From NCBI RefSeq assembly GCF_016903815.1, contig NZ_CP069973.1: a stretch of DNA of 64,000 nucleotides. The stretch is one strand, 5' to 3'. Positions 13,659 to 59,566 of this stretch are shown piece after piece (position 1 is the first letter of the stretch; each line of letters opens with the position of its first letter). The notes under the pieces are model-generated. The model worked only from the letters and a program-made list of their open reading frames with translations. It was not told where the DNA came from and ran no database searches. Both the position numbers and the translations under genes were made by a program. This stretch comes from Escherichia coli. Lineage in GTDB: Bacteria > Pseudomonadota > Gammaproteobacteria > Enterobacterales > Enterobacteriaceae.

Positions 13659-13665
13659 GAATAGT

Positions 13666-13697
13666 AAAAAACCATCTCATTATGAGGTGGTTTTTTA
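13666..13697. terminator. Bidirectional terminator between the SGNH gene and the tailspike gene
   Basis: Hairpin aaaaaccatctcat/tatgaggtggtttttt with flanking A- and T-runs. Confidence 0.5.
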
Positions 13698-13777
13698 TAT
13701 AGAATAAAGCAATAGAGGTTTATTTTATTTGTTTATCATGGCTTAATGCACTAGTACTTTAATTGAAAAAACTATAT

Positions 13778-16177: not shown

Positions 16178-16341
16178 TTAATTTTCTCCAGACGTAGCAA
16201 TGCGGAACAAGATGCAACTTGCCCGGCATTGCATTAATGTAAGTTATGATTTGTTAACTATGAGATGAGTCTATGCAAAAAGATCTGTTGAATATTGCGT
16301 TCTATATATTTGGTTTTTGCACATTTCTGGTGTTTGCAAAG

Positions 16342-19727: not shown

Positions 19728-19736
19728 GATTACCCC

Positions 19737-20429: not shown

Positions 20430-20431
20430 GG

Positions 20432-20887: not shown

Positions 20888-21588
20888 CAGTCAATCAGCC
20901 CATGTAATCTAAGTGCTGTTTCAAGCGCCAGAATACGCTGCCGCGCCTGCTCCAAACCTGTAGCGATAGCTGCGACTTCGGATTGTGTGTACGTAGTGCC
21001 GACCGTGTATGACTGGTTAGCGTTGAATGAGCCAAGAAGTGGTGTGCCTGTGGCCGCCGTCCATCCGGTCTGCCTTGCTCCAACGACCTGAATTCCATCA
21101 ACTGAATATGATGTTTTTACATCCAGCGGTGACGCAAGAGACTGCGATTCTGTTACGGTTTTCGATACGTAATCACTCTTAATGCCAGAGACATCGTTTT
21201 CTACGTCATCCAGTCTTTGGTCAACAGTGACCAGATGCGCCTGAATATCGATAACCTCATCCAGCAAGTAATCAACATCGCTACGCAGTACGACTATCTT
21301 CCCTTCGGCAGTTGTTAACCTGACCTCAAGTAGATTTATCGCTTTTGTGTTTGCGGTGATTCTTGCGTCGTGATCAGCCAGTTCGACGTCCTGTTCATCG
21401 TTTTTTACCTGAGCATCGTAAGCGCCCTGACCAGCCTGATTTGCCTTCCCGGCAATTGCGCCAACATCAGCACCCTGATTTATGACATACAGCAGGTAAG
21501 ACTGGCTGAATATATTGCGTGGAAGGATTGATGTATCGAGCCGCGTCGCCTGCACAATAACAGGGGTGTTGAGATTCGAATCAGCCAT
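20887..21588 (-). CDS. Tail needle protein (P22 gp26 homologue)
   Basis: 233 aa; N-terminus [25 protein letters not shown]... and C-terminus ...[32 protein letters not shown] closely match my memory of P22 gp26. Confidence 0.85.
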
Positions 21589-21985
21589 TACTCAATCCTC
21601 TGCCTTGCAAACTCTCCAAAATTTTCTGCTCTTGCCATCATTGATGCTGAGATAGCTTCGTCCAGGTCATCGAAGCATCCAACGTGAACCTGTTTTTTAT
21701 TTTTCTTGAAAGAAACAGTCCACTTGCAGAGATTTTTGTGCCAACAGACACCAGGATATCCTGACTTATTATTTCTTTGAATATTCCTGTTCATCCCATT
21801 CTGGGATCTATTTGCCAATCTTAAATTTGAAAATCTGTTATCCGTTCTGTCTCCGTTAATATGATCTATTAAGCAATTTGCAGGTTTTCCTGTCATATAA
21901 AACCAAGCAAGCCTATGCGCTAAGTATCTCTTACCACAGACCATTATCCTTAAATAACCAGTGCACATGGTTCCTGGATTTGCCC

Positions 21986-32758: not shown

Positions 32759-33226
32759 TCATCGAAGGCATTGCGTCCTGATGTATTCCTGAAGCGTTCT
32801 CAGTGCTGTTTGGTCGCGGATAATTCCGCCCCGGACACCGAGAACGTTTCGTCCAGCAACTGGAGAGAGTTCGACGGTGGCATCATTGCCCATGCCGGAG
32901 GCGCTGGAGGTTTCGGCTGAGGATGGCATATGGCATTTTCCTTTGACGAACACCCGACCACCATTATCAAGCTTGCGCCGAAGAGCATCATTTTCAGCTT
33001 TCGCATCAGCTAACTCCTTCGTGTATTTAGCATCGAGTGCATCAGCAGAACGCTGGCGCTGCTGCATGTGAGTAATGGTGGCGGTCGCCTGCTTCAGCTC
33101 ACTGACTTTTTTATCTCGCTGCTCTTTGTAGGTCATGGCGTTATCACGGTAATGATTAACCGCCCATGACAGGCAGACGATGATGCAGATAACCAGAGCG
33201 GAGATAATCGCGGTGACTCTGCTCAT
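32759..33226 (-). CDS. i-spanin (Rz-like)
   Basis: 155 aa; N-terminal TM anchor then charged coiled-coil; downstream of the endolysin; contains the embedded Rz1 ORF. Confidence 0.8.
32800..33006 (-). CDS. o-spanin (Rz1-like lipoprotein), embedded in the +1 frame of Rz
   Basis: 68 aa; signal peptide with lipobox (VVGC); Pro-rich mature region typical of Rz1. Confidence 0.7.
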
Positions 33227-33699
33227 ACATCAATCTCTCTGACCGTTCCGCCTGCTTCTTTGAATTTTGCAATTAGGCTGTCAGCCTTATGCTCGAACTG
33301 ACCATAACCAGCGCCCGGCAGTGAAGCCCAGATATTGCTGCAACGGTCAATTGCCTGACGAATATCACCGCGGTCAATCATCGGTAAAGCGCCACGCTCC
33401 TTAATCTGCTGCAGTGCCACAGCGTCCTGGCTTTTCGGAGAGAAGTCTTTCAGGCCAAGCTGCTTGCGGTAGGCATCCCACCAACGGGAAAGAAGCTGGT
33501 AGCGCCCGGCGGCTGTTGATTTGAGTTTGGGGTTTAGCGTGACAAGTTTGCGAGGGTGATCGGAGTAATCAGTAAATAGCTCTCCGCCTACAATGACGTC
33601 ATAACCATGATTTCTGGTTTTCTGCCGTCCGTTATCAGTTCCCTCTGACCACGCCAGCATATCGAGGAACGCCTTACGTTGATTATTGATTTCCACCAT
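33223..33699 (-). CDS. Endolysin (lambda R-like lytic transglycosylase)
   Basis: 158 aa; translation closely matches my memory of lambda R. Confidence 0.85.
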
Positions 33700-34006
33700 C
33701 TTCTACTCCGGCTTTTTTAGCAGCGAAGCGTTTGATAAGCGAACCAATCGAGTCAGTACCGATGTAGCCGATGAACACGCTCGTTATATAAGCGAGATTG
33801 CTACTTAGTCCGGCGAAGTCGAGAAGGTCACGAATGAACCAGGCGATAATGGCGCACATCGTTGCGTCGATTACTGTTTTTGTAAACGCACCGCCATTGT
33901 ATCTGCCGCGAAGGTACGCCATTGCAAACGCAAGGATTGCCCCGATGCCTTGTTCCTTTGCCGCGAGAATGGCGGCTAACAGGTCATGTTTTTCTGGCAT
34001 CTTCAT
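33683..34006 (-). CDS. Class I holin (lambda S-like) with dual-start motif
   Basis: 107 aa beginning [10 protein letters not shown]... (Met1-Lys2-Met3, as in the lambda S107/S105 pair); three TM segments; overlaps the endolysin start. Confidence 0.85.
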
Positions 34007-34515
34007 GTCTTACCCCCAATAAGGGGATTTGCTCTATTTAATTAGGAATAAGGTCGGTTACTGATAGAACAAATCCAGGCTACTGTGTTTAGTAATCAGA
34101 TTTGTTCGTGACCGATATGCACGGGCAAAACGGCAGGAGGTTGTTAGCGCGACCTCCTGCCACCCGCTTTCACGAAGGTCATGCGTAGAAGGCCGCAGCA
34201 TAACTATCACTGATGAATTCAGGATAGCCAGTGGCTACGGCTCAGTTTGGGTTGTGGCGGCCGGAATCGAACCGGCTTCCATCGGTGCGCTGCCGATTGC
34301 AGTACGCGCGGCGGTCAGCTACATGACTAGTATTTTCACTGTCGCCTATCTGCTAGCTCGCCATTGAGCTTCACCACAACGATAAGAGCACTGCGCGGCA
34401 CCTTTCACCAATTCCGCGAGGTCTGCGGGTTCAATGCTCTTACCTGTTGTGCAAACAAAAAAAGCCACCATTGCAACTTAAGAGTCACTAACGGCAGCTT
34501 ATCTTCTAATTATGG

Positions 34516-35034
34516 CTAAATGGATAATTGCATGTCAAGGCTTTTAACAGCAACATGCTTAACTTTCTCAACACGTTTACGCATTTTGAAAGCATTTTGC
34601 ATTGGCTGGTACAAAACAAATAACGACGCTTTCAGGATGTCGTCAATTTCGTTTCTACAGGTTGCCAGTGAAGGTTTTCTCCATCCCTCACCACCACGTC
34701 CACACATCTTGCGTGGCTTTGCAGTCGCGTGATAGTAGGATGCAATTGCTCGCTTAGATGAACCATGAGCGTAGTAGCTGAGGAGGATGCCAAATGCTTT
34801 CTTGTCAATGCACATGACGGAATCGACGACCTGAGAAATCAACATTCCATCATCATCATTACACATTGGCCTTGTCATAACTCTTCCCGGCTCTACGCTC
34901 TCCATGAACTTCGCTATTACGCTGCTCATGCGCTTTTCCAGACGACCTGAATAAACCCATGCGCCCCACAGTTCAAGCCAGCCATTCAGCCACTCGTGCT
35001 GCTCTTTGGTGAGGTTTAGTTCTCTTATGCTCAT
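34516..35034 (-). CDS. Putative late-gene antiterminator (Q-like)
   Basis: 172 aa with Cys/His-rich region; located between the nin region and the lysis genes where Q lies; ~500-bp non-coding region downstream, consistent with PR'/qut. Confidence 0.55.
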   Translation of the reverse strand: MSIRELNLTKEQHEWLNGWLELWGAWVYSGRLEKRMSSVIAKFMESVEPGRVMTRPMCNDDDGMLISQVVDSVMCIDKKAFGILLSYYAHGSSKRAIASYYHATAKPRKMCGRGGEGWRKPSLATCRNEIDDILKASLFVLYQPMQNAFKMRKRVEKVKHVAVKSLDMQLSI

Positions 35035-35219
35035 CGTCTTCCCCTCTTGCCTTGTTTGACCATCAGGACGCCGTTAACTATTACGTGACGCTCGCCTTTG
35101 CTGTCTCGGTTGTACTTGAGCACTGTTCCTCTTGCGCAGGAAAGCATCCTTGCCACTTCGGTCTGATTTCCTCGTGTCTGGATAAGCAGTTCTGGTATCG
35201 TTTGAATTGTGGCGTTCAT
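35031..35219 (-). CDS. ninH: NinH-like protein
   Basis: 62 aa; 'GNQTEVAR...RGTV.KY' matches my memory of lambda NinH. Confidence 0.65.
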   Translation of the reverse strand: MNATIQTIPELLIQTRGNQTEVARMLSCARGTVLKYNRDSKGERHVIVNGVLMVKQGKRGRR

Positions 35220-35578
35220 GCGTTCTCCAGTTCGGTGATTTTTATTCCAAGCCGTCCGCCTGGTACTTTCACACCACGAATTACGCGAATGTCATCGAAT
35301 TGCTCGTCGTCTTCCGCAAATCCGGCGTGGATAAGGGAGTCGAGTAAACCTTTCAGGATGTTATCGAGGTCGCGGCGGCGGGAGTCTGGAACGTCTGCGA
35401 TGACTTTGATGCGGAGTCGTGATTTGGTGAAAATGTCTAACTTGAGTTGGCGGATGATTTGCTGAACGTCTTTTCGGTATTTCTGGCCTTTATCGCTGAT
35501 GTAGTATTGGCTTCCCCGTCTTCGCCAGTAGGTGTTCAGCGACGGTGGGTATGGAAGCACAAACTGATATTCGTTCAT
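35216..35578 (-). CDS. rusA: Holliday junction resolvase RusA
   Basis: 120 aa; size and nin-region position match RusA; acidic catalytic residues present. Confidence 0.8.
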   Translation of the reverse strand: MNEYQFVLPYPPSLNTYWRRRGSQYYISDKGQKYRKDVQQIIRQLKLDIFTKSRLRIKVIADVPDSRRRDLDNILKGLLDSLIHAGFAEDDEQFDDIRVIRGVKVPGGRLGIKITELENA

Positions 35579-35865
35579 GGCTTAATCTTCCCCTCCTTCA
35601 GCAGTATCGCCTGCGTCCTGATTACGCCTTCGAGGTGGTAAAGTCTGGCGTCTTTGTTGTCGAGGTTATGGGTGCGTCGGTCGATTTCATCGTGACACGC
35701 GCTACAAGCCCATGCGCCGATCAGGTCGTCAGGCTTCATTCCCGTTCCGCAAATTCCAGCCATCCGGTAATGTGCCAGAACTGTAGTTTCAGGATTACCA
35801 TTGCATACGCCGTAAATACGTACCTGGCATTCTCTGCCGCGTGCTTCTTTGCGTAGATTAGCCAT
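35575..35865 (-). CDS. Hypothetical nin-region protein (DUF1364-like, Cys/His-rich)
   Basis: 96 aa with CxxC...CxxC arrangement; overlapping stop/start with neighbours. Confidence 0.45.
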   Translation of the reverse strand: MANLRKEARGRECQVRIYGVCNGNPETTVLAHYRMAGICGTGMKPDDLIGAWACSACHDEIDRRTHNLDNKDARLYHLEGVIRTQAILLKEGKIKP

Positions 35866-36587
35866 TAAGCAGCCTCCCCTGTTACTTTCAGCATTCCGTT
35901 ATCGAGCAGCTTTCTGGTCAGCCACTGTTGACCACGCCCGGTGATTTTTGTGGTGAACGATATCTGTATTCCGTGATTTGTGTTGACCGCTGTTTCTTTC
36001 ACTGCGAAATAGCCGCGATCCATATATTCCTGCATTGGCACATTGCGCCGGGAACCTGAAGCAATAAGGATTTTGTGATCGCGCATCCACGCAAACAGTT
36101 TGTTTGGACCAATACCAACAACCTTTGCATAGTTTCCAATCAAAATTCCACTGGCCTCGCCAACGCGATCGGCAAACTCAACTTTAGGTGCGGCAATTGC
36201 GAGCTGGTTTTCCAGTTGCATTTTCTGCTCAGCAAGGTCAGCAGCAAGGCGCAACGCTTCTGGTAGCGTTTTTGGGATATTAACCGCAGATTCTTCAAGC
36301 TCTCGCCAACGGTCAACAAGGCGAGCGGTGAATTCCGGCGACAACTGGGCAACAACGACAATACTGTCTCGCTTACCTTGTTCGCCTTCGAAGACGTAAT
36401 GCTCGTACTGAACATTGAACCCTAAGTTATTGATTCTTCCGGAAACCTCAATTTGAGGAAGCCGGATAACACCATTTTTAGCCAGCGTTTCGATGGTACG
36501 TTTCACATTGTCATGACGCTTACCAACCAACTCAGCAATTTCAATGCTTGTCATTTTGATGGCATTGCCATTCATTAACTCATTCAT
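35865..36587 (-). CDS. Phage antirepressor-like protein (Rha/KilAC-type)
   Basis: 240 aa; N-terminal Rha-like region and C-terminal KilAC-like region by family resemblance. Confidence 0.55.
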   Translation of the reverse strand: MNELMNGNAIKMTSIEIAELVGKRHDNVKRTIETLAKNGVIRLPQIEVSGRINNLGFNVQYEHYVFEGEQGKRDSIVVVAQLSPEFTARLVDRWRELEESAVNIPKTLPEALRLAADLAEQKMQLENQLAIAAPKVEFADRVGEASGILIGNYAKVVGIGPNKLFAWMRDHKILIASGSRRNVPMQEYMDRGYFAVKETAVNTNHGIQISFTTKITGRGQQWLTRKLLDNGMLKVTGEAA

Positions 36588-36792
36588 CGTCTTCTTCCTC
36601 GTACATTGAGCTATTCGGATCGCTCATCAGTTCTGCGCAGCAGTGCTCACACACGTGAACTTCCAGCACATGCAGCTTCTGACCGCAGTTAGCGCACGTT
36701 AAAGCTCGCTCGACGCTTTCTTGTTCGTAACTTCGATTTGGGTCAATCACCTTGTATTCCTCGCACGATTTCTTAGCCACCGGATATCCCAC
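36580..36792 (-). CDS. Small Cys-rich nin-region protein (NinF-like)
   Basis: 70 aa with CxxC...CxxC and acidic tail. Confidence 0.4.
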
Positions 36793-36929
36793 AGGTGAGC
36801 AGTGTAATTGAAGGTTTTTACGTCAGATTCTTTTGGGATTGGCTTGCGTTTATTTCTGGAGCGTTTCGTTGGAAGGTATTTGCAGTTTTCGCAGATGATG
36901 TCAGTGAAACTTCGTCGCTGTCGCCTCAT
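36747..36929 (-). CDS. ninE: NinE-like protein
   Basis: ORF 36747-37019; start set at [31 protein letters not shown]... (60 aa), matching my memory of lambda NinE. Confidence 0.65.
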
Positions 36930-37453
36930 GCCGCCCTCCTGACGCCCTGCCCGATCGCCATCAATGCCGCTTTGGATACGGTAGTAAACATCCGTCGAGG
37001 ACTGATGAACGGTCGCCAAATCAGCAGCATGGAACCTTTGCTGTTTCCCTTCTTCTCCAGCCCTGTCGATGGTTCGATAAAATTAATCCGTCCATCAGTA
37101 ATGATGCGAACTTCGTCAATACTCTCCAGAGCCTTGCTGAACCATCCGACAGACATATCCTCTGGCACAAGCATAACTACCGTCTGTCGCTGTTGTATGC
37201 ACTGCTCAGCGGCTTTTTCCACCCACGGCCTGATATTGCTGTACGGCGGGTTATTCCAGATTGCACCGTGGCTTACCCACTCAGAATTGAGCGCGTCGTC
37301 GGCCTCAGTCAGCCAGTGAGCGCACAGAGCATTTTTGTCGCTCGCTGCCGAATCCAGCCAGAATCCAAACTCAATATCCAGTGCATCAAAAAGCCAAAGC
37401 GGCGTTTGCCAGCAGTCCTTGTCGTGTGCTGGCGTATTTGATTTGATAGTCAT
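36926..37453 (-). CDS. Phage DNA N6-adenine methyltransferase (Dam-like)
   Basis: ORF 36926-37513; start set at [18 protein letters not shown]...; 'NPPYS' catalytic motif; ATGA overlap with ninB stop. Confidence 0.75.
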
Positions 37454-37887
37454 GCAGCCCGATCTCCCCATCTCGCTTTCCACTCCAGAGCCAGTCTCGC
37501 TTCGTCTGACCACTTAACGCCACGCTCTGTACCGAATGCCTGTATAAGCTCTAATAGCTCCGCAAATTCGCCTACACGCATCCTGCTGGTTGACTGGCCT
37601 ATTACCACAAAGCCATTCCCGGCAAGGTTAGGAACAACATCCTGCTGCTTTAATGCTGCGGTAAACACACACTTCCAGCTTTCTGCATCCAGCCAGCGAC
37701 CATGCCATTCAACCTGACGAGAGACGTCACCTAAGCAGGCCCATAGCTTCCTGTTTTGGTCTAAGCTGCGGTTGCGTTCCTGAATGGTTACTACGATTGG
37801 TTTGGTTGGGTCTGGAAGGATTTGCTGTACTGCGTGAATAGCGTTTTGCTGATGTGCTGGAGATCGAATTTCAAAGGTTAGTTTTTT
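37450..37887 (-). CDS. ninB: Recombination protein NinB
   Basis: ORF 37450-37908; start set at MKKLTFEIRSPAHQQNAIHAV...; family resemblance to lambda NinB. Confidence 0.75.
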   Translation of the reverse strand, partial: KKLTFEIRSPAHQQNAIHAVQQILPDPTKPIVVTIQERNRSLDQNRKLWACLGDVSRQVEWHGRWLDAESWKCVFTAALKQQDVVPNLAGNGFVVIGQSTSRMRVGEFAELLELIQAFGTERGVKWSDEARLALEWKARWGDRAA

Positions 37888-37963
37888 CATGACTTCCCTC
37901 TCCCCCAAATAAAAAGGCCTGCGATTACCAGCAGGCCTGTTATTAGCTCAGTGATGTAGATGA

Positions 37964-38233
37964 TCATTGCTTCATCTCCCTTTCCATTTCATCAATGTCA
38001 ACGTCATCAGGAAGATGGGAGCAATACGCCGCTATACCATGATGATTTATCTCATACCCTTTGAACGTTACCATCTGGTGCGTAATCTCAACTTCGTTCA
38101 GGAATCCGTCATCGCATAACTGCCTGGCTATTTTCGATTTGGTCTGGATTATTGGTAGTGCCTGTTCTTTCAAAGCGCATGATATTTGTGCATCCCATGC
38201 CTTTTCGAGAATGGCTAATTGTTTTTTATTCAT
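37964..38233 (-). CDS. Hypothetical phage protein
   Basis: 89-aa ORF immediately downstream of the helicase gene. Confidence 0.35.
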   Translation of the reverse strand: MNKKQLAILEKAWDAQISCALKEQALPIIQTKSKIARQLCDDGFLNEVEITHQMVTFKGYEINHHGIAAYCSHLPDDVDIDEMEREMKQ

Positions 38234-39669
38234 CAGAATCCTCCTTTCTTCTTGGACTGCGGTTCCTCGCGTTCACGGCGGCGCATTTCAGCAGACTGTT
38301 GGTCTGTGTCATAAATAGCGCCATTTGCCTGAATGCAATACACCGTGCCGGTATTGCCATGACGATTGAGGCGAAGGATTAGTTCGGTTTCACCAGGAGG
38401 AAAGCTGTCATCAAAAGCACCTTCACGATGGATCCCAACCCAATAATCGCAATCCTGTTCAATCTGCCCTGTATCTCGTGAGTCACTTGGTAATGGGCGT
38501 TTATTGGTTCGGCTTTCCAGTGCGCGGTTAAGCTGTGTCAGAAGCACAACAACGCAATCAAGCTCTTTGGCAAGGTTCTTCAGTCCTTTGGTGATCATGC
38601 CGTAAGCAAGGTCGTTGCGATCGGCCTTTTCAGCGGTCATTAGTGTCAGGTAATCGACCAGAATCATGCCAACACATCCTTTTTCTCGCTTGATTCGACG
38701 GCTTTCGCTGACGATTTGAGCCAGAGATAATCCCGGCGTGTCGTCGATGTAAAGCAGGTCGATTTCACTCAAGCGATTGGCTGTTTCGATCGCCCTGTTG
38801 AAGTCACCATCGTAATCACCCTGATAGCCGTCATCAGCGTCATTTGTCGCCGGAAGGTAAAAAATATTGGGGTTAACACCTGACTTTTGCCCTACCAGTT
38901 TTTCCAGTATCTGGTCACCTGGCATTTCAAGGCTGAACATCAGAGCGGGCTTTTTCTCATGCACTGCGCAGTTGATTGCCATCTGGCTGTATAGCGTCGT
39001 TTTCCCCATCTTAGGGCGAGCGCCAATGACAAACAAAGAGCCTTTCACCAGACCTTTCGGTGACAGCATCCTGTCCAGCGATGGGATCCCTGTGCTCATT
39101 CCTCGTTGTTCGCCTGACGGGTCAAAACGCTTCTCAAGGTCGCTAACCCAGTCTTCCATGACCTCACCAAATGAGCGAAGTCCGCGACGCGATCCGGTTT
39201 TTGCATGGTCTGTCAGTTGCGTGAAAATCGCCTGAATAGCTTCGTACTTCTGCGTTGCAGTCATTCCGTTGCGGGAATAGAGCAATTCCGTCGCTTCAGT
39301 CATGCGGTTGATGGCGTAGCGTTCCATTGCGGTTTCGCGAACCTGCATTGCATAGGCAACGATGTTTGCTGCGCTTGGCGTGTTCTTTGCGATCTCAGCG
39401 ATATAAGCAAAACCGCCAACAGACGCCGTTAACGATTTACGCTCCAGTTCATCGAAAAGCGTCAGGCCATCTACTGGCTTTTGCTCCCGGTGCATTCTGG
39501 TTATCTCTTCGAAAAGGATTTTGTGTGGTCGGCTGTAAAATGAATCAGGCTTCAGCATCGCCAGAACTTTCTGGACGCGCTCACTGCTGTCATCATCCAG
39601 AAGCAATCCACCAATCACCGCCTGCTCTGCCTCGATGCTATGGGGCGGCGCATAAAAATTATCGGTCAT
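38233..39669 (-). CDS. Replicative DNA helicase (DnaB-like; P22 gene 12 position)
   Basis: ORF 38233-39684 (GTG) with internal ATG at 39669; Walker A 'GARPKMGKTT' and DnaB-type N-terminal domain. Confidence 0.85.
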   Translation of the reverse strand: MTDNFYAPPHSIEAEQAVIGGLLLDDDSSERVQKVLAMLKPDSFYSRPHKILFEEITRMHREQKPVDGLTLFDELERKSLTASVGGFAYIAEIAKNTPSAANIVAYAMQVRETAMERYAINRMTEATELLYSRNGMTATQKYEAIQAIFTQLTDHAKTGSRRGLRSFGEVMEDWVSDLEKRFDPSGEQRGMSTGIPSLDRMLSPKGLVKGSLFVIGARPKMGKTTLYSQMAINCAVHEKKPALMFSLEMPGDQILEKLVGQKSGVNPNIFYLPATNDADDGYQGDYDGDFNRAIETANRLSEIDLLYIDDTPGLSLAQIVSESRRIKREKGCVGMILVDYLTLMTAEKADRNDLAYGMITKGLKNLAKELDCVVVLLTQLNRALESRTNKRPLPSDSRDTGQIEQDCDYWVGIHREGAFDDSFPPGETELILRLNRHGNTGTVYCIQANGAIYDTDQQSAEMRRREREEPQSKKKGGF

Positions 39670-40558
39670 CGTGTTCACCCTCACGAACTTTCAGGTAGGT
39701 ATTGTCGTTAAGCAGGAAATCAAATCCCTTTTTGTGCCAGACGGTTCCGCGTTGATGGTTTGGGCGTTCTTCGAACATCCATCGGCAATTTTCGCCTACG
39801 TAGCTCAAATAATTTCTCCAGTCCTGCATCGTGAACCCATGTCCGTCAAGCTGGCGGGTTATCACTCCGGCTTTGCGCCAGAACGTTCGGATCTGGTTTT
39901 TACGCTTGTCATTCAGTGCGCGGATTCTTGGCGCTTCAGGAAGGATTTCGTGGTAAGCATCGACAACATCCTGACAGCTGACGGAAGGTTTTTTCTTGTC
40001 AGACTTTTTGTCTGCTGTGGCACTCTCTAATACGTCAGTATTAGAGATAATATTATTATATTCTTTATCTGTGGTAATTTGCTGGTAATCTGCTGGTACA
40101 GTATTGCTTGCAGGCATTGGTATTGCTGGCTTTGAGGTGGTAATTTGCTGGTAATCTGCTGGTACAAAACTTGACTGATAATCGTCATATTTCTCTACCG
40201 AGAAAACTGAGAATTTACCGTGTGAAACCCAGTCAATCATGCCGAGTTTTTTGAACTTTCTAAGCAGGTACTGAACGCGATCTGGTTTGAGTCCTGTTTC
40301 AAACGCCAGAGAGTTTCTACCGCCAAGTAGCTTCCCTCTGCCTACCAGAATTTCTCCTGCGTCAGTCATTACATACTCAGGCGTATGCTTTGCTTTGAGG
40401 ATTAAGTGAACCCACAGATGCGCTGCTTCTGCGTCCTTGTAAAACGGCACATCCATAATTTTACGGTGCAGCAAGGCATACCCCTTACCGCTGCTTTGAT
40501 GCGGTTGTTGTAGCCTTCTGGCCTCTCTGGCTTCGGCTAGATTAGATATGTTACTCAT
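39659..40558 (-). CDS. Replication initiation protein (lambda O / P22 gp18 functional analogue) containing ori iterons
   Basis: 299 aa; direct DNA repeats in the middle of the gene encode a duplicated [10 protein letters not shown] peptide; immediately upstream of the helicase. Confidence 0.65.
40071..40166. repeat. Putative phage replication origin iterons inside the O-like gene
   Basis: Two ~30-bp direct repeats (40071-40100, 40137-40166), each with internal sub-repeats gctggtaat(t/c)tgctggta, next to an AT-rich tract. Confidence 0.6.
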
Positions 40559-40729
40559 GACCTTTCTCCTTCTGCATCAGCTTCACTTTTTCCAACTCAG
40601 CCCGAAATCGACCAGGCTGCTTGAAGCTGGACAGGAAGCGATCACGTAGTATGTGTTTGTGAATTTTGTCCTGGTAAGGACTGAGTTGTTTTGTCATAAT
40701 TACTCCTGTGGATTGATCCAGTAATGACC

Positions 40730-41023
40730 TCAGAACTCCATCTGGATTTGTTCAGAACGCTCGGTTGCCGCCGGGCGTTTTTTATTGGTGAGAATCGAAG
40801 CAACTTGTCGTGCCAATCGAGCCATATCGTCGTCAACGACGCCCCATTCAAGAACAGCAAGCAGCATTGAGAACTTTGGAATCCAGTCCCTCTTCCACCT
40901 GCTGATCTGCGACTTATCAACTCCTACAGCTTCCGCTGTCTTCTCAGTTCCAAGCATTGCGATTTTGTTAAGCAACGCACTCTCGATTCGTAGAGCCTCG
41001 TTGCGTTTGTTTGCACGAACCAT
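40730..41023 (-). CDS. cII: Transcriptional activator CII
   Basis: ORF 40730-41083; start set at [51 protein letters not shown]...; near-identical to my memory of lambda CII (97 aa). Confidence 0.85.
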
Positions 41024-41142
41024 ATGTAAGTATTTCCTTAGATAACAATTGATTGAATGTATGCAAATAAATGCATACACCATAGGTGTGGTTTAATTTG
41101 ATGCCCTTTTTCAGGGCTGGGATGTGTAAGAGCGGAAATGTC

Positions 41143-42495
<1,353 letters not shown>

Positions 42496-42544
42496 TCCCC
42501 ACCTCAATCTCGATAACCAAAAACAAACTATTTTTCATTTAAAA

Positions 42545-42612
42545 ACAATGGAGTTTGTTTTTCACGCCCCTTTTTACAATATTTCTTGTTTACAACATAC
42601 AATCTTTCTTGT
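42545..42612. promoter_or_regulatory. Left operator region OL (434-type operators, PL promoter region)
   Basis: Three ACAA-N6-TTGT sites: acaatggagtttgt (42545-42558), acaatatttcttgt (42576-42589), acaatctttcttgt (42599-42612), upstream of nutL and N. Confidence 0.7.
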
Positions 42613-42656
42613 AATTTTAAGCCATCAGCAGGACGCACTAACCACCATGAAGGTGA

Positions 42657-42687
42657 TGCTCTTAAAAATTAAGCCCTGAAGAAGGGC
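42657..42687 (+). promoter_or_regulatory. nutL antitermination site (boxA + boxB)
   Basis: boxA-like GCTCTTAAAAATTAA directly followed by boxB hairpin GCCCTGAAGAAGGGC, as in lambda nutL. Confidence 0.8.
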
Positions 42688-42885
42688 AGCTTTCAAAGCA
42701 GAAGGCTTTGGGATTGGATGAATGAGCAGGCTGATGCTCGACCAATGTATAAACAGCGCTCATGGCAAGCAGTAACCAATCTGCGCCTCAAGACAGCGTC
42801 ACTGGTAGTGCGGGCGCTCTAACCAGTAAGCCGGGGTTCAGCGCCGGCCATCCAATCACCAAAGCTAACTGACAGGAGAATCCAG

Positions 42886-43218
42886 ATGGATGCACAAACA
42901 CGCCGCCGCGAACGTCGCGCAGAGAAACAGGCTCAATGGAAAGCAGCGAATCCCCTGTTGGTTGGGGTAAGCGCAAAACCAGTTAACCGCCCTATTCTCT
43001 CGCTGAATCGCAAACCGAAATCACGAGTAGAAAGCGCACTGAATCCGATAGACCTTACGGTGCTGGCTGAATACCACGAACAGATTGAAAGCAACCTGCA
43101 GCGTATTGAGCGCAAGAATCAGCGCACATGGTACAGCAAGCCACGCAGTGAAATGGGTGTGACTTGCTCAGGCCGCCAGAAGCAACGCGGAAAATCAATT
43201 CCAGCTTATTACGATTGA
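42886..43218 (+). CDS. N: Antitermination protein N
   Basis: 110 aa; MDAQTRRRERRAEKQAQWKAANPLLVGVSAKPVNRPILSLNRKPKSRVESALNPIDLTVLAEYH... matches my memory of lambda N (arginine-rich boxB-binding motif). Confidence 0.9.
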   Translation: MDAQTRRRERRAEKQAQWKAANPLLVGVSAKPVNRPILSLNRKPKSRVESALNPIDLTVLAEYHEQIESNLQRIERKNQRTWYSKPRSEMGVTCSGRQKQRGKSIPAYYD

Positions 43219-43226
43219 GGTGATAT

Positions 43227-43478
43227 ATGGAATTTCATGAAAGTGCGATTTGTGATTTTCGCGCTAACGCAAATTCAGTAAAACCACAGCCAATTGCAGT
43301 TCTTTTTAAAACAATGGGAGCGTGGGCTGTTTTATGCTTCGCCGCTGATGACACTGACGCAAGAATGGCAATAGGCCAAGAGATGGAGATGGATCCGACA
43401 AACGATGAATTCATAATTTATGGCGCTCCATCTAATTACTTACTTGATACCTGCAACATTTACAACAAGGCTGCCTGA
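43227..43478 (+). CDS. Hypothetical early-left operon protein
   Basis: 83-aa ORF immediately after N. Confidence 0.35.
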   Translation: MEFHESAICDFRANANSVKPQPIAVLFKTMGAWAVLCFAADDTDARMAIGQEMEMDPTNDEFIIYGAPSNYLLDTCNIYNKAA

Positions 43479-43537
43479 TGGTGGTCTTTATTTTTTAGCC
43501 GTAAATAATTTCATGCTTATTACAATCAAGGTGATAT

Positions 43538-43903
43538 ATGGAAGAACAAGCAAACAAGATTCTCGTAGAACTACTGCAAAAAGCCAGCAATGGAATAGAC
43601 GCGGCTGTTTCATTTAGCCAGGCACAGATTCCTGATGTCATCCATCAGCTTTTGATGTGGCACGCCGTATCATCAGCTGGAATTCAGGCTATCTGTGTAT
43701 TGGTGATTATAGCGTGTGTTTATCTGATGATTTTTGCATGGAATAAAGGAGATGATGCAGATATTGTTCTTTCATCACTACTTGTCACATCAGGAATAGC
43801 GATTATTTCTATTGTTGTTTTCTTCAATTATTTCGACTGGCTGAAAATTTGGCTTGCTCCAAAACTTTACCTTATCGAATATGCAGCATCATTGGTTAAG
43901 TAA
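43538..43903 (+). CDS. Hypothetical membrane protein (early-left operon)
   Basis: 121 aa with 2-3 predicted TM segments; in the ral/sieB position of lambda. Confidence 0.4.
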   Translation: MEEQANKILVELLQKASNGIDAAVSFSQAQIPDVIHQLLMWHAVSSAGIQAICVLVIIACVYLMIFAWNKGDDADIVLSSLLVTSGIAIISIVVFFNYFDWLKIWLAPKLYLIEYAASLVK

Positions 43904-44092
43904 TTTCAGGACGCATAGCCGGCCTTTATTTTTGGCACAAACAACAGAATAAACACTGCACTGTGTATTCATTCCAACGAGTGGATACACGGAGCAATGT
44001 CGCTCGTAACTAAACAGGAGCCGACTTGTTCTGATTATTGGAAATCTTCTTTGCCCTCCAATGTGAGGGCAGTTTTTTTGACGGAGTAAACG

Positions 44093-44341
44093 ATGATAAA
44101 AACTGATTACCCTGCAGAGCTTAAACAAAAAGTAATAACAGCAATTAAATGCTCTTTTATCTCATGTCGTACAGATGAAGAACGATATGTCGTTGAGTGT
44201 GCAATTGTCGAGTTTCTCACAGCGATGGAATTTACCGCTGCAGAATCAATAGATGTATTAAAGCAATCAGACGGAAATGATATTGAAACGGATGATGTTA
44301 TTGACCGACTAATAAAATCATTCGAAGAAGAAATAGAGTAG
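44093..44341 (+). CDS. Hypothetical acidic protein
   Basis: 82-aa ORF; position only. Confidence 0.35.
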   Translation: MIKTDYPAELKQKVITAIKCSFISCRTDEERYVVECAIVEFLTAMEFTAAESIDVLKQSDGNDIETDDVIDRLIKSFEEEIE

Positions 44342-44543
44342 CCGCCTGAGCGCGGCTTTACCGCATACCAATAATGCTTCACGAGAGGCATTTTAGTTAT
44401 GCAATCAAATATAAGGAGTTACCCATGATGCACTTTCAGCTCGCGGGTAGCGGCGTCATGTCCGCTTTCTACCCGCACGAATCTGAATTATCACGCCGAG
44501 TTAAACAATTAATCAGAGCAGCAAAGAAACAAATGGAGGCGTT

Positions 44544-44696
44544 ATGCGCAATGAAATAGCCATCAATCACCAGATGCTTCGTGCTGCACAGAACAAAGCA
44601 GTAATAGCCAGATTTATTGGTGATTCCAAAATGTGGCTTGAAGCAAATAAAGCGATGAAATCAGCTATCAACCTTCCGTGGTATCGCAGGAAATGA
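44544..44696 (+). CDS. Small protein, possibly Kil-like
   Basis: 50-aa ORF MRNEIAINHQMLRAAQNKAVIARFIGDSKMW... not in the ORF track (<60 aa); 'FIGD' segment loosely recalls lambda Kil; ATGA-coupled to a following 34-aa ORF (44693-44797). Confidence 0.3.
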   Translation: MRNEIAINHQMLRAAQNKAVIARFIGDSKMWLEANKAMKSAINLPWYRRK

Positions 44697-44777
44697 GTTT
44701 TACAGATAACTGGTCAGACGAAGAATTCATTCGTCAGATGAACAAAATGCTCAATCAGCACAAAGAACAGGAGAAAG

Positions 44778-45089
44778 ATGATGATTCTGACTCTGAATGA
44801 TAAGCGTGAAATATCGCAAATAATCGCAAGTTTTACTGATGAAGATTACGAACGAATCAACAGTGAAGTTGATCGCCTCTGCAAACGTTGCGACCCAATA
44901 AGCGAAATGCTTCGCTCATATAAACCAGATGAACACACTAAGGACGCTATCGACTGGCTGGAAGATGATGACTGTAACTATCAGGAAAAAGCCGCTGAAT
45001 GGTTCTGGGATGCAATAACCGAAAGAGTTAAGGCTGAATATGCCTTCGCAATATTCAAACGCAGACATATTTATGGAGAAGCTGCATGA
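44778..45089 (+). CDS. Hypothetical protein
   Basis: 103-aa ORF, ATGA-coupled to the recT-like gene. Confidence 0.4.
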   Translation: MMILTLNDKREISQIIASFTDEDYERINSEVDRLCKRCDPISEMLRSYKPDEHTKDAIDWLEDDDCNYQEKAAEWFWDAITERVKAEYAFAIFKRRHIYGEAA

Positions 45090-45997
45090 GCAATATCGTT
45101 GAATTCGTTAAACAGCAAGAGCAGTTATTCTGCGGAGCATTGACTGAACAGACGGTGACATGGGCTAAGGAAAGCCAGTTTGCAATTCAGTATTTCCAGA
45201 AAAATGATTACCTGGCTAAAACGGCACTGGCAAATCCAACCAGCGCACAGAACGCCATCATCAATGTTGCGGCGATCGGCATCACCTTAAACCCGGCCAG
45301 CAAACTGGCTTATCTGGTTCCTCGCGACGGCATGGTGTGCCTTGATATCAGTTATATGGGATTGCTCCATATTGCAATGGAGTCTGGTGTTATCTCATGG
45401 GGTCAGGCAAAACTTGTTCATGCTAACGATACCTATGAGTCAAACGGGCTTGATAAAGCACCAACCCATAAATACAACGCCTTCGGTGATCGTGGTGATA
45501 TCGTTGGCGTTTACTGCACAGTTAAGACGCCAGCAGGTGATTATCTAACGGAAGAGATGAGTCTGGCTGAAATTGAGGCTGTAAGGAAAACAAGCAAGGC
45601 GGCATTCAGCGATAAAGGACCATGGGTAAATCACTGGAATGAGATGGCGCGAAAGACGGTCGTAAAGCGTGCAAGCAAGTTTTGGCCTAAGGCATCACGT
45701 CTTGATAGTGCTATTCACGTACTAAACGAAGAAGAAGGTGTGTGGACTGAACCAGTTATGCCGCACAAATCAGAGGAAGATATCCGCGAAGATGAACGGA
45801 AACGCCAGCAGGAAATAACGGATAAAGCACAACTTCTTTGTGATGAAATGGCTCAGGCTGAAAACATGGATGATTTGAAGCGATATTTTGCAGAAGCATA
45901 TCGCCTGACATCTGGAATGAAATTGCAGCAGAACGTACAAGCCATTTACGCAGAATGCAAAGCGAAACTGGAGGTTGCCAGTGAGCAAACTATATGA
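45086..45997 (+). CDS. recT: Single-strand annealing recombinase (RecT family)
   Basis: 303 aa; 'GPWVNHWNEMARKTVVKRASKFWP' resembles the RecT family core as I recall Rac RecT. Confidence 0.75.
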   Translation: MSNIVEFVKQQEQLFCGALTEQTVTWAKESQFAIQYFQKNDYLAKTALANPTSAQNAIINVAAIGITLNPASKLAYLVPRDGMVCLDISYMGLLHIAMESGVISWGQAKLVHANDTYESNGLDKAPTHKYNAFGDRGDIVGVYCTVKTPAGDYLTEEMSLAEIEAVRKTSKAAFSDKGPWVNHWNEMARKTVVKRASKFWPKASRLDSAIHVLNEEEGVWTEPVMPHKSEEDIREDERKRQQEITDKAQLLCDEMAQAENMDDLKRYFAEAYRLTSGMKLQQNVQAIYAECKAKLEVASEQTI

Positions 45998-46463
45998 AAT
46001 TGCCAATGAATACGCAAAATTGATGGATTCAGATTTAGAACCAGAGATGATTGCTGACACAATAGAAGGCATGGAAGGAGAATTTACCGATAAAATAGAG
46101 CAACTTCTTGCCATTATTAAAAATGAATCTGGTTATGCTGAACGCCTCAAGGAAGAGGCAAAGTCACTGAATGAGCGAGCCGCAGTAATTCAAAATAAGA
46201 TTGAGAGCATCAAATCATATATAGCGTCATCGCTTGAAATGGTTGGCAAGAAAAAGATTCGAGCAGGTATTCACCAGGTAACAATCCGCAAACCGTCAGA
46301 AACTGTAGAAATCATCGACTCAAGCGCCCTTCCTCCTGAATACGTTGAGTTTGAAACGACAATTAAAGCCGACAAACTGGCAATCAAACACCAACTAAAA
46401 GCAGGAATAAATATCCCCGGCGCTCAACTCAAAGTTGGGAAACCTTCACTTCTTATCAAATAA
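45975..46463 (+). CDS. Hypothetical recombination-associated protein
   Basis: 162-aa ORF (non-ATG start in the track); immediately downstream of recT; coiled-coil composition. Confidence 0.4.
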   Translation: MPVSKLYEIANEYAKLMDSDLEPEMIADTIEGMEGEFTDKIEQLLAIIKNESGYAERLKEEAKSLNERAAVIQNKIESIKSYIASSLEMVGKKKIRAGIHQVTIRKPSETVEIIDSSALPPEYVEFETTIKADKLAIKHQLKAGINIPGAQLKVGKPSLLIK

Positions 46464-46474
46464 CGGTATCGACT

Positions 46475-46789
46475 ATGAAAAAGACTCCATGGGAGAAATG
46501 GGAAGTCGATTTCTTGCGCGAGGTAGCGGCGACAATGCCAGTTGAAGTTATCGCTGAAAAACTGGAAAGGACTGAAAAAGCAGTAATGGCGAAAGCAACA
46601 AGGATTGGCGCTGACATTGTTAGCCGACTTCGTGGAAGACGATGGACAAGAGCCGAAGTATCACTTTTCGGTAAGTTCTCCGCAGAAGAAATAGCAATTG
46701 CAACCTGCCGCTCAATTTATTCAGTAAGAGCTATGCGATACAAGCTAAAAAAACTCGATGAAGAAAGAGCAGGCATACGAATAAATTAA
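46475..46789 (+). CDS. Hypothetical protein
   Basis: 104-aa ORF with plausible spacing. Confidence 0.4.
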   Translation: MKKTPWEKWEVDFLREVAATMPVEVIAEKLERTEKAVMAKATRIGADIVSRLRGRRWTRAEVSLFGKFSAEEIAIATCRSIYSVRAMRYKLKKLDEERAGIRIN

Positions 46790-46805
46790 CATGGAGTAAT
46801 TAACA

Positions 46806-47087
46806 ATGAAGCTAAACATCGACCTTGGAAAATACGTTATTACCGGAACCAAACACGACCTGATTCTTAGTGAAAGAGGAATTATCAAAGAAGGCGAGAA
46901 TGCAGGGAAAGAAACACTAAGTCGTATCGGTTATTACAGCAAGTTTGAGCATCTGGTTAAAGAGTTATGCAACCGTGAAATCCTGTTATCTCAGGCGCAG
47001 ACACTACAGGATATTCAGCAGCATATCGAGACTTTAGGTGTATCACTTAGCACGGCTGTTGACCAGTTCGCGGAGAGTAAATCATGA
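46806..47087 (+). CDS. Hypothetical protein
   Basis: 93-aa ORF; stop overlaps the next small ORF. Confidence 0.4.
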
Positions 47088-47247
47088 GAGGACTTGCATA
47101 CAATCCCGGCATTCTTCCGGCAGAAATGATTATTCGCCAACGCGTAAAGCCAATGCCATCGAGAGAGGAATTGCTTAAGAGAAATTCTTTTCCATCAGTG
47201 AATCAAAACAAATATCTGAATTCGATGTGGCGCAAAGGAGGCAAGCA

Positions 47248-47502
47248 GTGAGTAATTCCGCACGACTACAGCTTGGTTTTTCACCGCTATCAAAAACTAT
47301 CATGCTGGCAAAAATGCGCGATGTTGAAGGTGGACGTATGCGCGTTGGCAATGATCCAGGTCGTGATGTTACCAATGAGGCTGCTCAATTGGTGTGGCGA
47401 CTGGTCATGGCTGAAGGTGGTGAGATCGCGTGGGAACTTGATGATGGTTCTCGCATGGTGTTGAAGGCAGAGAAGCAGGAGACAACCAGTGAGCAAGATT
47501 GA
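47248..47502 (+). CDS. Hypothetical protein
   Basis: ORF 47227-47502; probable GTG start at 47248, GTGA-coupled to the preceding 55-aa ORF (47084-47251). Confidence 0.35.
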
Positions 47503-48181
47503 CTATCAGGCACTGCGTGATGTGGCAGTGAAAGCCGGTAAAGATAAGTGGCAAGCTAAAAAAATAAACGGTGATTTTTTCGTTATTCGTCACGGTAGTT
47601 ATACAAGACAGCATGGCTACACATTGTATCAACCCATTGCGGAGATTGATTGTAAGTCAGTCCGGGATTTTGTTGCCAAGGCTAATCCGGCTACCGTGCT
47701 TGCGCTTCTTGATGAACTGGAAGCTCAAAGCAAACGCATTGCAGAGCTGGAGAAAAAAGCTGCACCAGATTCGTTTGGCATCATCGGTGAAAATATTCGA
47801 ACACAGGATAATCGAATAACGTCAGACCCTATGTTTTGTGTGTATCAAAAGCGCGAAATCGTTGTTGATGCTGATTATGACTATGACCGGATTGTCTGGG
47901 TTGATGAAGATGGTAATGAAGCCAATAAACGCCAAAGTCGTCGTCTCGAACTACTTCACGAAAACTTTCGAGAGCCACAAGAAAAATGGCGGCGCGTTGC
48001 TGTGAAAGATATTGATGAATTCGTTACCTGCTGTTTCACCGAACAGGGTTGTAAAGACTACCTGGCAGCCAATGGTCACAATCTTCGCTTGCCATTTATA
48101 TATGTAAAAAGCGGTTTCAGGAACGCTGAATATATCGGCATAAGAAACTGGCTTGCTGGCATTCGCATCAAAGGAGAGTGA
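47489..48181 (+). CDS. Hypothetical protein (Ead/Ea22-like early protein)
   Basis: 230-aa ORF overlapping the preceding stop. Confidence 0.4.
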   Translation: MSKIDYQALRDVAVKAGKDKWQAKKINGDFFVIRHGSYTRQHGYTLYQPIAEIDCKSVRDFVAKANPATVLALLDELEAQSKRIAELEKKAAPDSFGIIGENIRTQDNRITSDPMFCVYQKREIVVDADYDYDRIVWVDEDGNEANKRQSRRLELLHENFREPQEKWRRVAVKDIDEFVTCCFTEQGCKDYLAANGHNLRLPFIYVKSGFRNAEYIGIRNWLAGIRIKGE

Positions 48182-48182
48182 T

Positions 48183-48392
48183 ATGGCTATCGCTGCAAGT
48201 TACACCATGCATCTCTATTGTGATTGCCTCCAGTGTACAGATGGCAAATATAAGTCGCCAGACTTCGGTGAGTATATAGGTACGTCATGGGCTGGCTGTG
48301 CAAAAGAGGCGCGCAAGGATGGCTGGCGAATAAGCAAAGACAAAACGCGTGCTTTTGCGCCCGGGCATAAAGTTTTGAGGATTAACAAATGA
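48183..48392 (+). CDS. Hypothetical Cys-rich small protein
   Basis: ORF 48153-48392; ATG at 48183; CxxC-containing. Confidence 0.35.
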   Translation: MAIAASYTMHLYCDCLQCTDGKYKSPDFGEYIGTSWAGCAKEARKDGWRISKDKTRAFAPGHKVLRINK

Positions 48393-49180
48393 CCACTTTA
48401 ACCGACAAAGAACTGATTAAAGAAATCAAAGAGCGCATAGGCAGCTTGGACGTTCGAGACAATATTGAGCGCCGTGCTTATGAAATTGCACTGGCATCGC
48501 TGGAAGCAGAGCCGATAGGTTTCCGTTGCAGGCGCAATGATAACCTTGGTGACTGGAGTTACGTATATCATCGAGAGCCAGATGATTTTGAGCGCAAACA
48601 TTTAGTGATAGAGGGCATTTACGCCTCCCCTCCAGCGCCAGTAGTACCGGAAGAAAAACCAATGCCTAATCCTCTTAGCATGTACGCGGTTGATGCTGTT
48701 GCCGCTATTGCAGAGGTGAGAGGCTGGAACGCCTGCCGCGCTGCCATGCTTCATAGTGCCGAACCTGCAAGTAATCATGAAGAGTTGCCGCTTGATTATC
48801 TCCAAGGTCAAAAAGATGGTCTTGAATGGGCTGCGCAGCTTGCAGAAGCAAATCACCCACAAACTGGCGACTGGCTTTACGATGACCCGCTGGAGCTGGC
48901 TAAAGCTATCAGAAAAGGTCCTGACATGCCCGAATTCGATGGACCAACTCCGGTGACTCCGGATAGTTGGATAAGCTGTAGTGATCGAATGCCGGAAGAC
49001 ACCAAAATGTTACTGGCATTTAGTCAAGGTCAAATAGTGGCAGCATATTGGAACTGGGTAGTGAGTCCAATTGATTACAAAAAATACAGAGCTTTCACAT
49101 ATTTATCAGGCAATATCTTGGATGACGTAACCCACTGGATGCCACTACCGGAACCGCCGCAGGAGGCTGACAATGGCTAA
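48389..49180 (+). CDS. Hypothetical protein
   Basis: 263-aa ORF with ATGA overlap to the upstream ORF. Confidence 0.45.
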   Translation: MTTLTDKELIKEIKERIGSLDVRDNIERRAYEIALASLEAEPIGFRCRRNDNLGDWSYVYHREPDDFERKHLVIEGIYASPPAPVVPEEKPMPNPLSMYAVDAVAAIAEVRGWNACRAAMLHSAEPASNHEELPLDYLQGQKDGLEWAAQLAEANHPQTGDWLYDDPLELAKAIRKGPDMPEFDGPTPVTPDSWISCSDRMPEDTKMLLAFSQGQIVAAYWNWVVSPIDYKKYRAFTYLSGNILDDVTHWMPLPEPPQEADNG

Positions 49181-49457
49181 TCTGCAACTGGCAGTGAACG
49201 GCGAATACTTCGACCAGATGAAGCGGGGCGAGAAAACGGAAGAGTATCGCCTGTGTAATGACTACTGGAATAAGCGAATTATGTTCCGGGAGTATGACCG
49301 CCTGATTATCACAAAGGGATATCCGAAGCGCGACGATTCCAGTCGCAGAATTGATGTTCCGTATGGTGGATATGAAATCAAGACAATCATACATCCACAC
49401 TTCGGTGATAAACCGGTAAAGGTGTTCGCGATAAAGGTGAATATCGGCAATGAATAA
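49173..49457 (+). CDS. Hypothetical protein (possibly ASCH-like)
   Basis: 94-aa ORF overlapping the upstream stop. Confidence 0.35.
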   Translation: MANLQLAVNGEYFDQMKRGEKTEEYRLCNDYWNKRIMFREYDRLIITKGYPKRDDSSRRIDVPYGGYEIKTIIHPHFGDKPVKVFAIKVNIGNE

Positions 49458-49753
49458 CATCCTCGCACTCGCGGGGATTTCTTTTATCTGAACTCGCTAC
49501 GGCGGGTTTTGTTTTATGGAGATGATAAATGCACTTCCGAGTCACTGGTGAATGGAATGGAGAGCCATTCGACAGGGTTATAGAAGCAGAGGACATCAAC
49601 GACTGCTATAACCACTGGATGATATGGGCGCAGATAGCGCATGCAGACGTAACCAATATTCGAATTGAAGAACTGAAAGAACACCAAGACGCCTGATGGC
49701 GGTTTTTTATTGCCTGATTTGCAGGTTCGATTCCCTATTCGGAGATAGCACTC

Positions 49754-49954
49754 ATGCAACACGAACTACAGCCTGATTCACTGGTTGATTTGAAATTCAT
49801 CATGGCCGATACTGGCTTTGGTAAAACCTTCATCTATGACCGGATTAAGTCCGGCGACCTTCCTAAAGCCAAAGTTATCCACGGACGAGCAAGATGGTTA
49901 TATCGTGACCATTGTGAATTTAAAAATAAGCTCTTAAGCCGCGCCAATGGGTAA
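49754..49954 (+). CDS. AlpA-family excisionase / DNA-binding regulator (Xis) for prophage 1
   Basis: 66 aa, HTH; ends 74 bp before the att repeat at 50028; in the circular phage it would sit directly upstream of attP and the int gene at 10996. Confidence 0.65.
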   Translation: MQHELQPDSLVDLKFIMADTGFGKTFIYDRIKSGDLPKAKVIHGRARWLYRDHCEFKNKLLSRANG

Positions 49955-50027
49955 AATAGCGGGTAAAATATTTCTCACATCTAAAAAACACCATTCCAAT
50001 CAATCCCCTGCCGCTTCAAGTAGATGT

Positions 50028-50043
50028 CTGCAGGGGACACCAT
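50028..50043. repeat. att core repeat (copy of argW 3' end); right junction of prophage 1 and left junction of island 2
   Basis: 16-bp CTGCAGGGGACACCAT identical to argW positions 10820-10835. Confidence 0.8.
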
Positions 50044-59560: not shown

Positions 59561-59566
59561 AATGCA

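Follow-up and report, generated by a model that had tools for sequence, protein, structure and literature searches.

A predicted orphan N6-adenine DNA methyltransferase of the phage Dam family in the nin region of a P22-like Escherichia coli prophage

The window analysed here is a 64,000-nucleotide (nt) stretch of Escherichia coli DNA (contig NZ_CP069973.1, assembly GCF_016903815.1), and the gene in question, dam, is a minus-strand open reading frame (ORF) at 36926-37453, which in the six-frame ORF listing comprises 528 nt and encodes 175 amino acids (aa) plus a stop codon from an ATG at 37453. An earlier note on this DNA had described the product as a prophage-encoded, Dam-like adenine methyltransferase with an NPPY motif, embedded among nin genes and translationally coupled to ninB; its coordinates were exact, and the motif was located at residues 68-71. 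The minus strand carried, in order, an O-like replication gene, a DnaB-like helicase gene, an 89-aa ORF, a terminator, ninB, dam, ninE, ninF, a Rha/ANT gene (Rha/KilAC antirepressor-type), YbcO, RusA, NinH, and the antiterminator Q. On the strand transcribed from PR, dam comes after the replication genes and before Q, and Pfam matches to NinB, NinE, NinF, YbcO, RusA, NinH and Q on that strand bore out its placement among nin genes. No restriction partner of the kind that a type II restriction-modification system would have was found among the neighbours NinB, NinE, NinF, Rha/ANT, YbcO, RusA, NinH and Q, and the enzyme is therefore regarded as an orphan.

Profile searches gave full-length matches above curated cut-offs. 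Pfam PF05869 ('DNA N-6-adenine-methyltransferase (Dam)') was matched over profile positions 1-167 of 169 with an E value of 1.4e-64 and 217.3 bits (cut-off 28.1 bits), and the NCBIfam equivalog TIGR01712 ('phage N-6-adenine-methyltransferase') over positions 1-165 of 165 with 265.9 bits (cut-off 97.05 bits), values that exclude a chance match and uphold the assignment as a prophage Dam-like adenine methyltransferase. The product also matched PHROG 111 ('DNA methyltransferase'), and the best matches in PADLOC were its 'orphan methyltransferase' models. No match to PF02086 (MethyltransfD12), the family of the classical alpha-class Dams, was obtained at E ≤ 0.01; E. coli Dam, T4 Dam and DpnM have only the core in common with this protein, at about 10% identity over about 107 aligned residues, and are about 100 aa longer, with an inserted DNA-recognition domain that is absent here. 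Judged by sequence, the protein is Dam-like in predicted function and outside the alpha-class PF02086.

An exhaustive HMMER scan returned 8719 cluster representatives at E ≤ 0.001, and the family is therefore large; by tblastn, Dam was found in 1899 phage records, including phages of Escherichia, Klebsiella, Vibrio, Lactococcus, Staphylococcus and Gordonia. The dam gene itself was present at 95-99% DNA identity in 244 phage records, mostly Stx1/Stx2 (Shiga toxin)-converting phages, with mEp043, Sf101 and Louie also represented, and the isolated phage Louie encodes an identical protein. Among complete E. coli genomes, 1565 of 5426 (about 29%) carried the gene, which RefSeq names 'phage N-6-adenine-methyltransferase' and places between 'recombination protein NinB' and 'NinE family protein'. 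It is thus an already known, routinely annotated gene of an ordinary, already characterised type that is common between ninB and ninE in lambda-like and P22-like E. coli prophages; with this frequency and a near-identical cloned counterpart of reported GATC specificity, it carries little weight as a discovery.

That counterpart is the dam product of phage VT2-Sakai (M.EcoVT2Dam, H0105, BAA94133), to which 174 of the 175 residues were identical. The two genes were 98.5% identical at the DNA level, with seven synonymous differences and one conservative replacement (I112V), residue 112 being isoleucine here and valine in VT2-Sakai, at a position outside the invariant columns given below. BAA94133 is annotated as 'similar to 933W L0094, HP1 Orf13 and T1 M.T1'. 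M.EcoVT2Dam and its equivalents in 933W (L0094), Phi24B, Min27, HK97, mEp043 and Sf101 agree with the present gene in length, in position between ninB and ninE, and in the 4-nt overlaps; the settings differ, VT2-Sakai being a Stx phage and the present element a P22-like prophage at argW without stx, with an upstream ninB allele that is a mosaic variant other than that of VT2-Sakai. A passage of PMC6602927 that cites Radlinska & Bujnicki 2001 states that M.EcoVT2Dam, a methyltransferase encoded by prophage VT2-Sa and classed as an orphan, 'is known to target 5'-GATC-3''. The earlier note had proposed that the methylated motif be determined by experiment, and this has in effect been done on M.EcoVT2Dam, with GATC as the target named in that passage. 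From the near-identity of the two proteins, N6-methyladenine (m6A) at GATC is predicted as the most likely product of the enzyme described here. Dam-like genes are also carried by VT-2, HP1, P1 and T-even phages (PMC7556043).

HP1 Dam (orf13, 35% identity) and T1 Dam (M.EcoT1Dam, 32% identity), both founding members of PF05869/TIGR01712, have the DxWxTP, LDxAA, NPPYS and R..FI motifs in common with this Dam. HP1 Dam is of nearly equal size (173 aa), whereas T1 Dam is extended by 48 aa at its N terminus and carries an insertion in the strand 6-7 region, both absent here; the genomic contexts differ too, T1 being a virulent siphovirus and HP1 a P2-like phage, as against the nin region of a P22-like prophage. 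M.TaqI/M.EcoKI-type (group 2) enzymes, PCIF1/CAPAM included, span 382-751 aa with large extra recognition or helical domains, in contrast to the bare catalytic domain found here. The non-specific enzymes (Hia5; M.EcoGII-like; phiP27 L24/OS31_p25) are likewise orphan, prophage-borne m6A methyltransferases from enterobacterial phages and their relatives, but they fall into another family (PF01555, about 350 aa) and have relaxed specificity, and the phiP27 methyltransferase gene lies near Q-stx, not between ninB and ninE. As candidate relatives, Hia5 was rejected for its different motif set, phiP27 L24 for its membership of PF01555, and M.EcoGIX for its description as a plasmid-borne, single-strand-specific enzyme.

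Motif IV, (N/D)PPY(S), was present as NPPYS at residues 68-72 and is kept in HP1 and T1 Dam. Conservation was scored over 63 diverse homologs, in which T17, D34, N68, P70, R122 and F125 were invariant and P18, A37, P69, Y71 and N137 were at least 90% conserved. W15, T17, P18, L33, D34 and A37 were conserved as WxTP and LDxAA segments preceding motif IV, giving the linear order I then IV, on which sequence and structural model agreed. The AlphaFold model, built on the 63-sequence alignment, had a predicted local distance difference test (pLDDT) score of 95.2 and a predicted template modelling (pTM) score of 0.91, and consisted of a single alpha/beta Rossmann methyltransferase domain with strands at residues 31-34, 64-67, 92-97, 114-119, 141-146 and 155-160, and no separate target-recognition domain. 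In a fold search with the model, 144 of 175 residues superposed on the catalytic domains of larger methyltransferases, and the closest solved folds were N6-adenine methyltransferases; PCIF1/CAPAM, an mRNA cap N6,2'-O-dimethyladenosine (m6Am) methyltransferase, was the top neighbour, with M.TaqI, Dam, M.BseCI, MmeI, CamA and type I M subunits within about 1 Z unit of it. Neither the single-sequence nor the 63-sequence profile search detected a solved structure for members of PF05869; the hits to SdiA (single-sequence search, E 0.32) and Med31 (63-sequence profile search, E 0.018) were rejected, the former as noise and the latter as a chance 'WCNPPYS' string.

On this basis, the protein is proposed to be an active orphan N6-adenine DNA methyltransferase of the small phage family PF05869/TIGR01712 that depends on S-adenosylmethionine (AdoMet), with the GATC adenine as its most likely target. 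We take the LDSAAS loop to correspond to the (D/E)PAxG motif I of M.TaqI and HsdM-type enzymes. By this analogy we infer that the loop, which follows strand 1 and contains the invariant D34, would be the equivalent of AdoMet-binding motif I and hold the cofactor, and that NPPY, after strand 4, would be the adenine-binding catalytic motif and hold the flipped base. Because there is no separate recognition domain, the loops of the core would have to read the sequence; as speculation, the DNA contacts may come from the N-terminal WxTP segment (T17, P18) and the strand 6-7 hairpin (R122, F125, N137), which would be the likeliest candidates.

The start codon at 37453 was supported by the Pfam and TIGRFAM profile alignments, which open at residues 2-4, by HP1 Dam, which starts at the same aligned position, and by RefSeq, in which WP_023146905.1 is the same coding sequence with the same start. 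The longest form of the ORF, from a GTG at 37513 to the same end at 36926 (195 aa), was rejected as the start, with the profiles and HP1 Dam aligning from the ATG and RefSeq agreeing. A Shine-Dalgarno-like GGGGAG run, read 10 nt 5' of the ATG and within the end of ninB, also speaks for this start. ATGA overlaps join ninB to dam and dam to ninE (Table 1), the former in keeping with the translational coupling to ninB that had been claimed. A plus-strand ORF of 174 aa at 36795-37319 was set aside as the mechanical shadow of dam; across it, the only genes annotated by RefSeq are on the minus strand.

A strong hairpin of the intrinsic-terminator type (AGGCCTGC...GCAGGCCT), with a T run after it, lay between the 89-aa ORF and ninB, at the position of the lambda terminator tR2, and a PR-like promoter was found beside the cro-like gene (Table 1). 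A consensus scan gave no promoter-like site at 37454-38178, nor between the terminator and dam, and the PR-like promoter is presumed to be the source of the transcript that reaches dam. In lambda, N antitermination is required for transcription to pass tR2 into the nin genes; by likeness to that arrangement, transcription of ninB-dam from PR would require it as well. From the layout of PR and terminator and the overlapping stop and start codons, NinB, Dam, NinE and NinF are predicted to be delayed-early, lytic-phase products, the overlapping string ninB-dam-ninE-ninF being translated from one delayed-early PR message, so that Dam would be made mainly after induction or infection, with little in a quiescent lysogen. 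Data on Phi24B agree with this expectation from the anatomy: its dam, 100% identical to that of VT2-Sakai and 99% to that of HK97 by Table 3 of PMC3342100, was among four CMAT genes with lytic-cycle-linked expression (PMC3342100).

The role of phage-borne Dam enzymes has been described as poorly understood (PMC7556043). The benefit proposed here is that, with host Dam limiting or absent, the enzyme would keep rapidly replicating phage DNA fully methylated at GATC; full methylation would shield progeny DNA against MutH, which nicks under-methylated GATC, and, in the next host, against MboI/DpnII-type restriction. Phage DNA could then leave the cell fully GATC-methylated at any level of host Dam, which bears on host range with respect to GATC-directed restriction and GATC-sensing defences; a possible cost is suggested by a preprint in which extra GATC methylation can trigger retron toxin-antitoxin defence. 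In the prophage (10835-50042), 88 GATC sites were counted against 189 expected from trinucleotides (observed/expected ratio, O/E, 0.47), compared with O/E values of 0.87 and 1.22 in the chromosomal flanks. When the prophage was approximated by a slightly narrower interval (17000-51500), CTAG and GGCC were the only other 4-nt palindromes as depleted as GATC or more so. GATC avoidance has long been known in enterobacterial phages, and the ratio of 0.47 fits with it. Prophage copies of Dam should be counted when E. coli methylomes and dam-mutant phenotypes are read.

Considered as a whole, it is very probable that the locus encodes an active orphan phage Dam that methylates GATC, is synthesised mainly in the lytic phase, and would benefit the phage through methylation of its DNA. 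Several points weigh against this explanation. The activity and specificity of this exact protein are predicted, and the GATC assignment of M.EcoVT2Dam is second-hand in the passage cited above; the promoter and the terminator were called only by match to a consensus; the authors of the Phi24B study suggested a possible role in lysogens (PMC3342100); the biological benefit is a proposal, for a host that already has Dam; and the depletion of GATC in the prophage lowers the need for a dedicated enzyme. A more elaborate proposal, which we consider unlikely, is that the bare 175-aa domain reads GATC via the strand 6-7 hairpin (R122, F125, N137), the WxTP segment, or dimerisation, and that the conserved ninB overlap together with GATC depletion would allow dedicated shielding of replicating or recombining phage DNA from MutH, or could equally make the phage visible to GATC-sensing retron defences.

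The earlier note had also suggested that such enzymes can alter the epigenetic state of the host in lysogens, and this was its weak part, given a host Dam that covers GATC, a tR2-like terminator upstream, and the lytic-linked expression in Phi24B. It is distinctly improbable that the gene is expressed in the lysogen and regulates host or prophage genes epigenetically, for instance by adding to the activity of host Dam and so stabilising lysogeny. The Phi24B dam clones did come from lysogen cultures, and their authors proposed supplementation of host Dam (PMC3342100), a paper through one of whose references host Dam is also reported, second-hand, to be needed for stable 933W lysogeny; the same gene, however, followed a lytic-cycle pattern, consistent with spontaneous induction in a subpopulation (PMC3342100). 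In the present prophage, dam belongs to the repressor-controlled PR operon and lies behind the terminator, no promoter-like site was seen at 37454-38178 to serve it alone, and no new motif is expected in a lysogen, where GATC is already methylated by host Dam. A relaxed or non-GATC specificity like that of Hia5, M.EcoGII or OS31_p25, conferring broad anti-restriction protection, would suit a protein with no recognisable target-recognition domain, and non-specific adenine methyltransferases are known in lambdoid and Mu-like prophages (PMC3299994; PMC7556043). This is nevertheless very improbable: phiP27 L24, the homolog cited for OS31_p25, is a PF01555 protein of 352 aa, Hia5 combines DPPY with a classical FxGxG motif and diverges in its recognition region (PMC3299994), and the present protein is separated from a reportedly GATC-specific enzyme, as named in the PMC6602927 passage, by the single change I112V.

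Two further alternatives concern whether the enzyme works at all and on what. That dam is an inactive remnant in a decaying prophage might be suspected from the insertion sequence IS2 among the morphogenesis genes, an insertion by which the prophage may be defective, but this is extremely improbable for a full-length ORF with all invariant family residues intact whose exact product also occurs in the isolated phage Louie; purifying selection, which likewise counts against it, is indicated by the 7:1 ratio of synonymous to non-synonymous changes relative to VT2-Sakai. An RNA or other non-DNA substrate is barely conceivable, the sole hint being PCIF1/CAPAM as the nearest solved structural neighbour: DNA adenine methyltransferases follow within about 1 Z unit, PCIF1 itself is classed with the M.EcoKI/M.TaqI group of DNA enzymes (PMC4738411), and the closest characterised relatives have been described as Dam-like enzymes of phages (PMC7556043), M.EcoVT2Dam being reported to act on GATC DNA in the passage of PMC6602927.

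Table 1. Coordinates of dam, its sequence motifs and signals, its neighbouring genes and the prophage within the window
Feature	Position	Strand	Basis
dam, predicted orphan phage N6-adenine DNA methyltransferase, 175 aa	36926..37453	-	PF05869, TIGR01712, ortholog of M.EcoVT2Dam
NPPY codons, residues 68-71, putative catalytic motif IV	37241..37252	-	after fourth beta strand of model; conservation
LDSAAS codons, residues 33-38, motif-I-like putative AdoMet-binding loop after strand 1	37340..37357	-	D34 invariant
ATGA overlap, ninB stop (TGA) / dam start (ATG)	37450..37453	-	sequence
ATGA overlap, dam stop (TGA) / ninE start (ATG)	36926..36929	-	sequence; VT2-Sakai annotation arranged alike
GGGGAG Shine-Dalgarno-like run	37464..37469	-	sequence reading
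ninB, recombination mediator NinB/Orf, upstream gene	37450..37890	-	PF05772, E 2.3e-54; RefSeq WP_000736903.1
ninE, downstream gene	36747..36929	-	PF05322, E 7e-42; one mosaic module with dam relative to VT2-Sakai
tR2-like intrinsic terminator, between 89-aa ORF and ninB	37915..37938	-	8-bp stem, 6 GC pairs, then T run
PR-like promoter beside cro-like gene	41386..41414	-	TTGACA, 17 nt, GAAAAT; consensus scan
P22-like prophage at tRNA-Arg(CCU) (argW), about 39 kb, carrying dam	10812..50042		att repeats, tRNA, annotation of the E. coli 2779 region

Over 40.5 kb, the stretch matched the chromosome of E. coli strain 2779 with 100% identity. The 23-nt 3' terminus of tRNA-Arg(CCU) (TTCGATTCCTGCAGGGGACACCA) was located at 10812-10834, with an exact repeat at 60328-60350 and a 16-nt core at 50020-50042; from these repeats, two tandem elements were delimited at argW: the P22-like prophage, at about 10.8-50.0 kb, and, separate from it, an island of 10.3 kb. 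Identity to VT2-Sakai was 98.2% over 36742-37460, which covers exactly ninE and dam and stops at the dam/ninB junction, a typical lambdoid mosaic joint, and picked up again at 37892-39620 (89-aa ORF and helicase gene). As read from these alignments, ninB is a different mosaic allele and dam-ninE travel as one module.

At the tailspike end of the prophage, intS (10996-12153) adjoined the tRNA; the opposite end carried a torI-like excisionase gene (about 49754-49954), a split arrangement that we take to be a KplE1/Sf6-type recombination module and not an adjacent int-xis pair. The IS2 copy, with its programmed-frameshift transposase, was located at about 21986-23214 amid P22-like head/DNA-stabilisation genes, adjoining an HNH endonuclease gene.

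The island (50043-60350, 10.3 kb) had a low GC content (0.41) and encoded a tyrosine integrase (50207-51493), a rolling-circle Rep-like protein (53557-54609, PF23343) and a resolvase (59567-60193). Two adjacent minus-strand ORFs, at 56397-58862 (821 aa) and 55408-56400 (330 aa), had no Pfam or PADLOC match and could be a defence gene pair.

Two sets of repeats were noted in the prophage. Exact 30-nt direct repeats (GTGGTAATTTGCTGGTAATCTGCTGGTACA) lay 66 nt apart at 40071-40100 and 40137-40166, inside the O-like replication gene, and are probably origin iterons. In the early-left region, a 46-nt segment ending GGTGATATATGGAA occurred at 43187-43232 and 43498-43543, 311 nt apart and with 80% identity, and the two copies look like duplicated ribosome-binding/start regions of two small genes.
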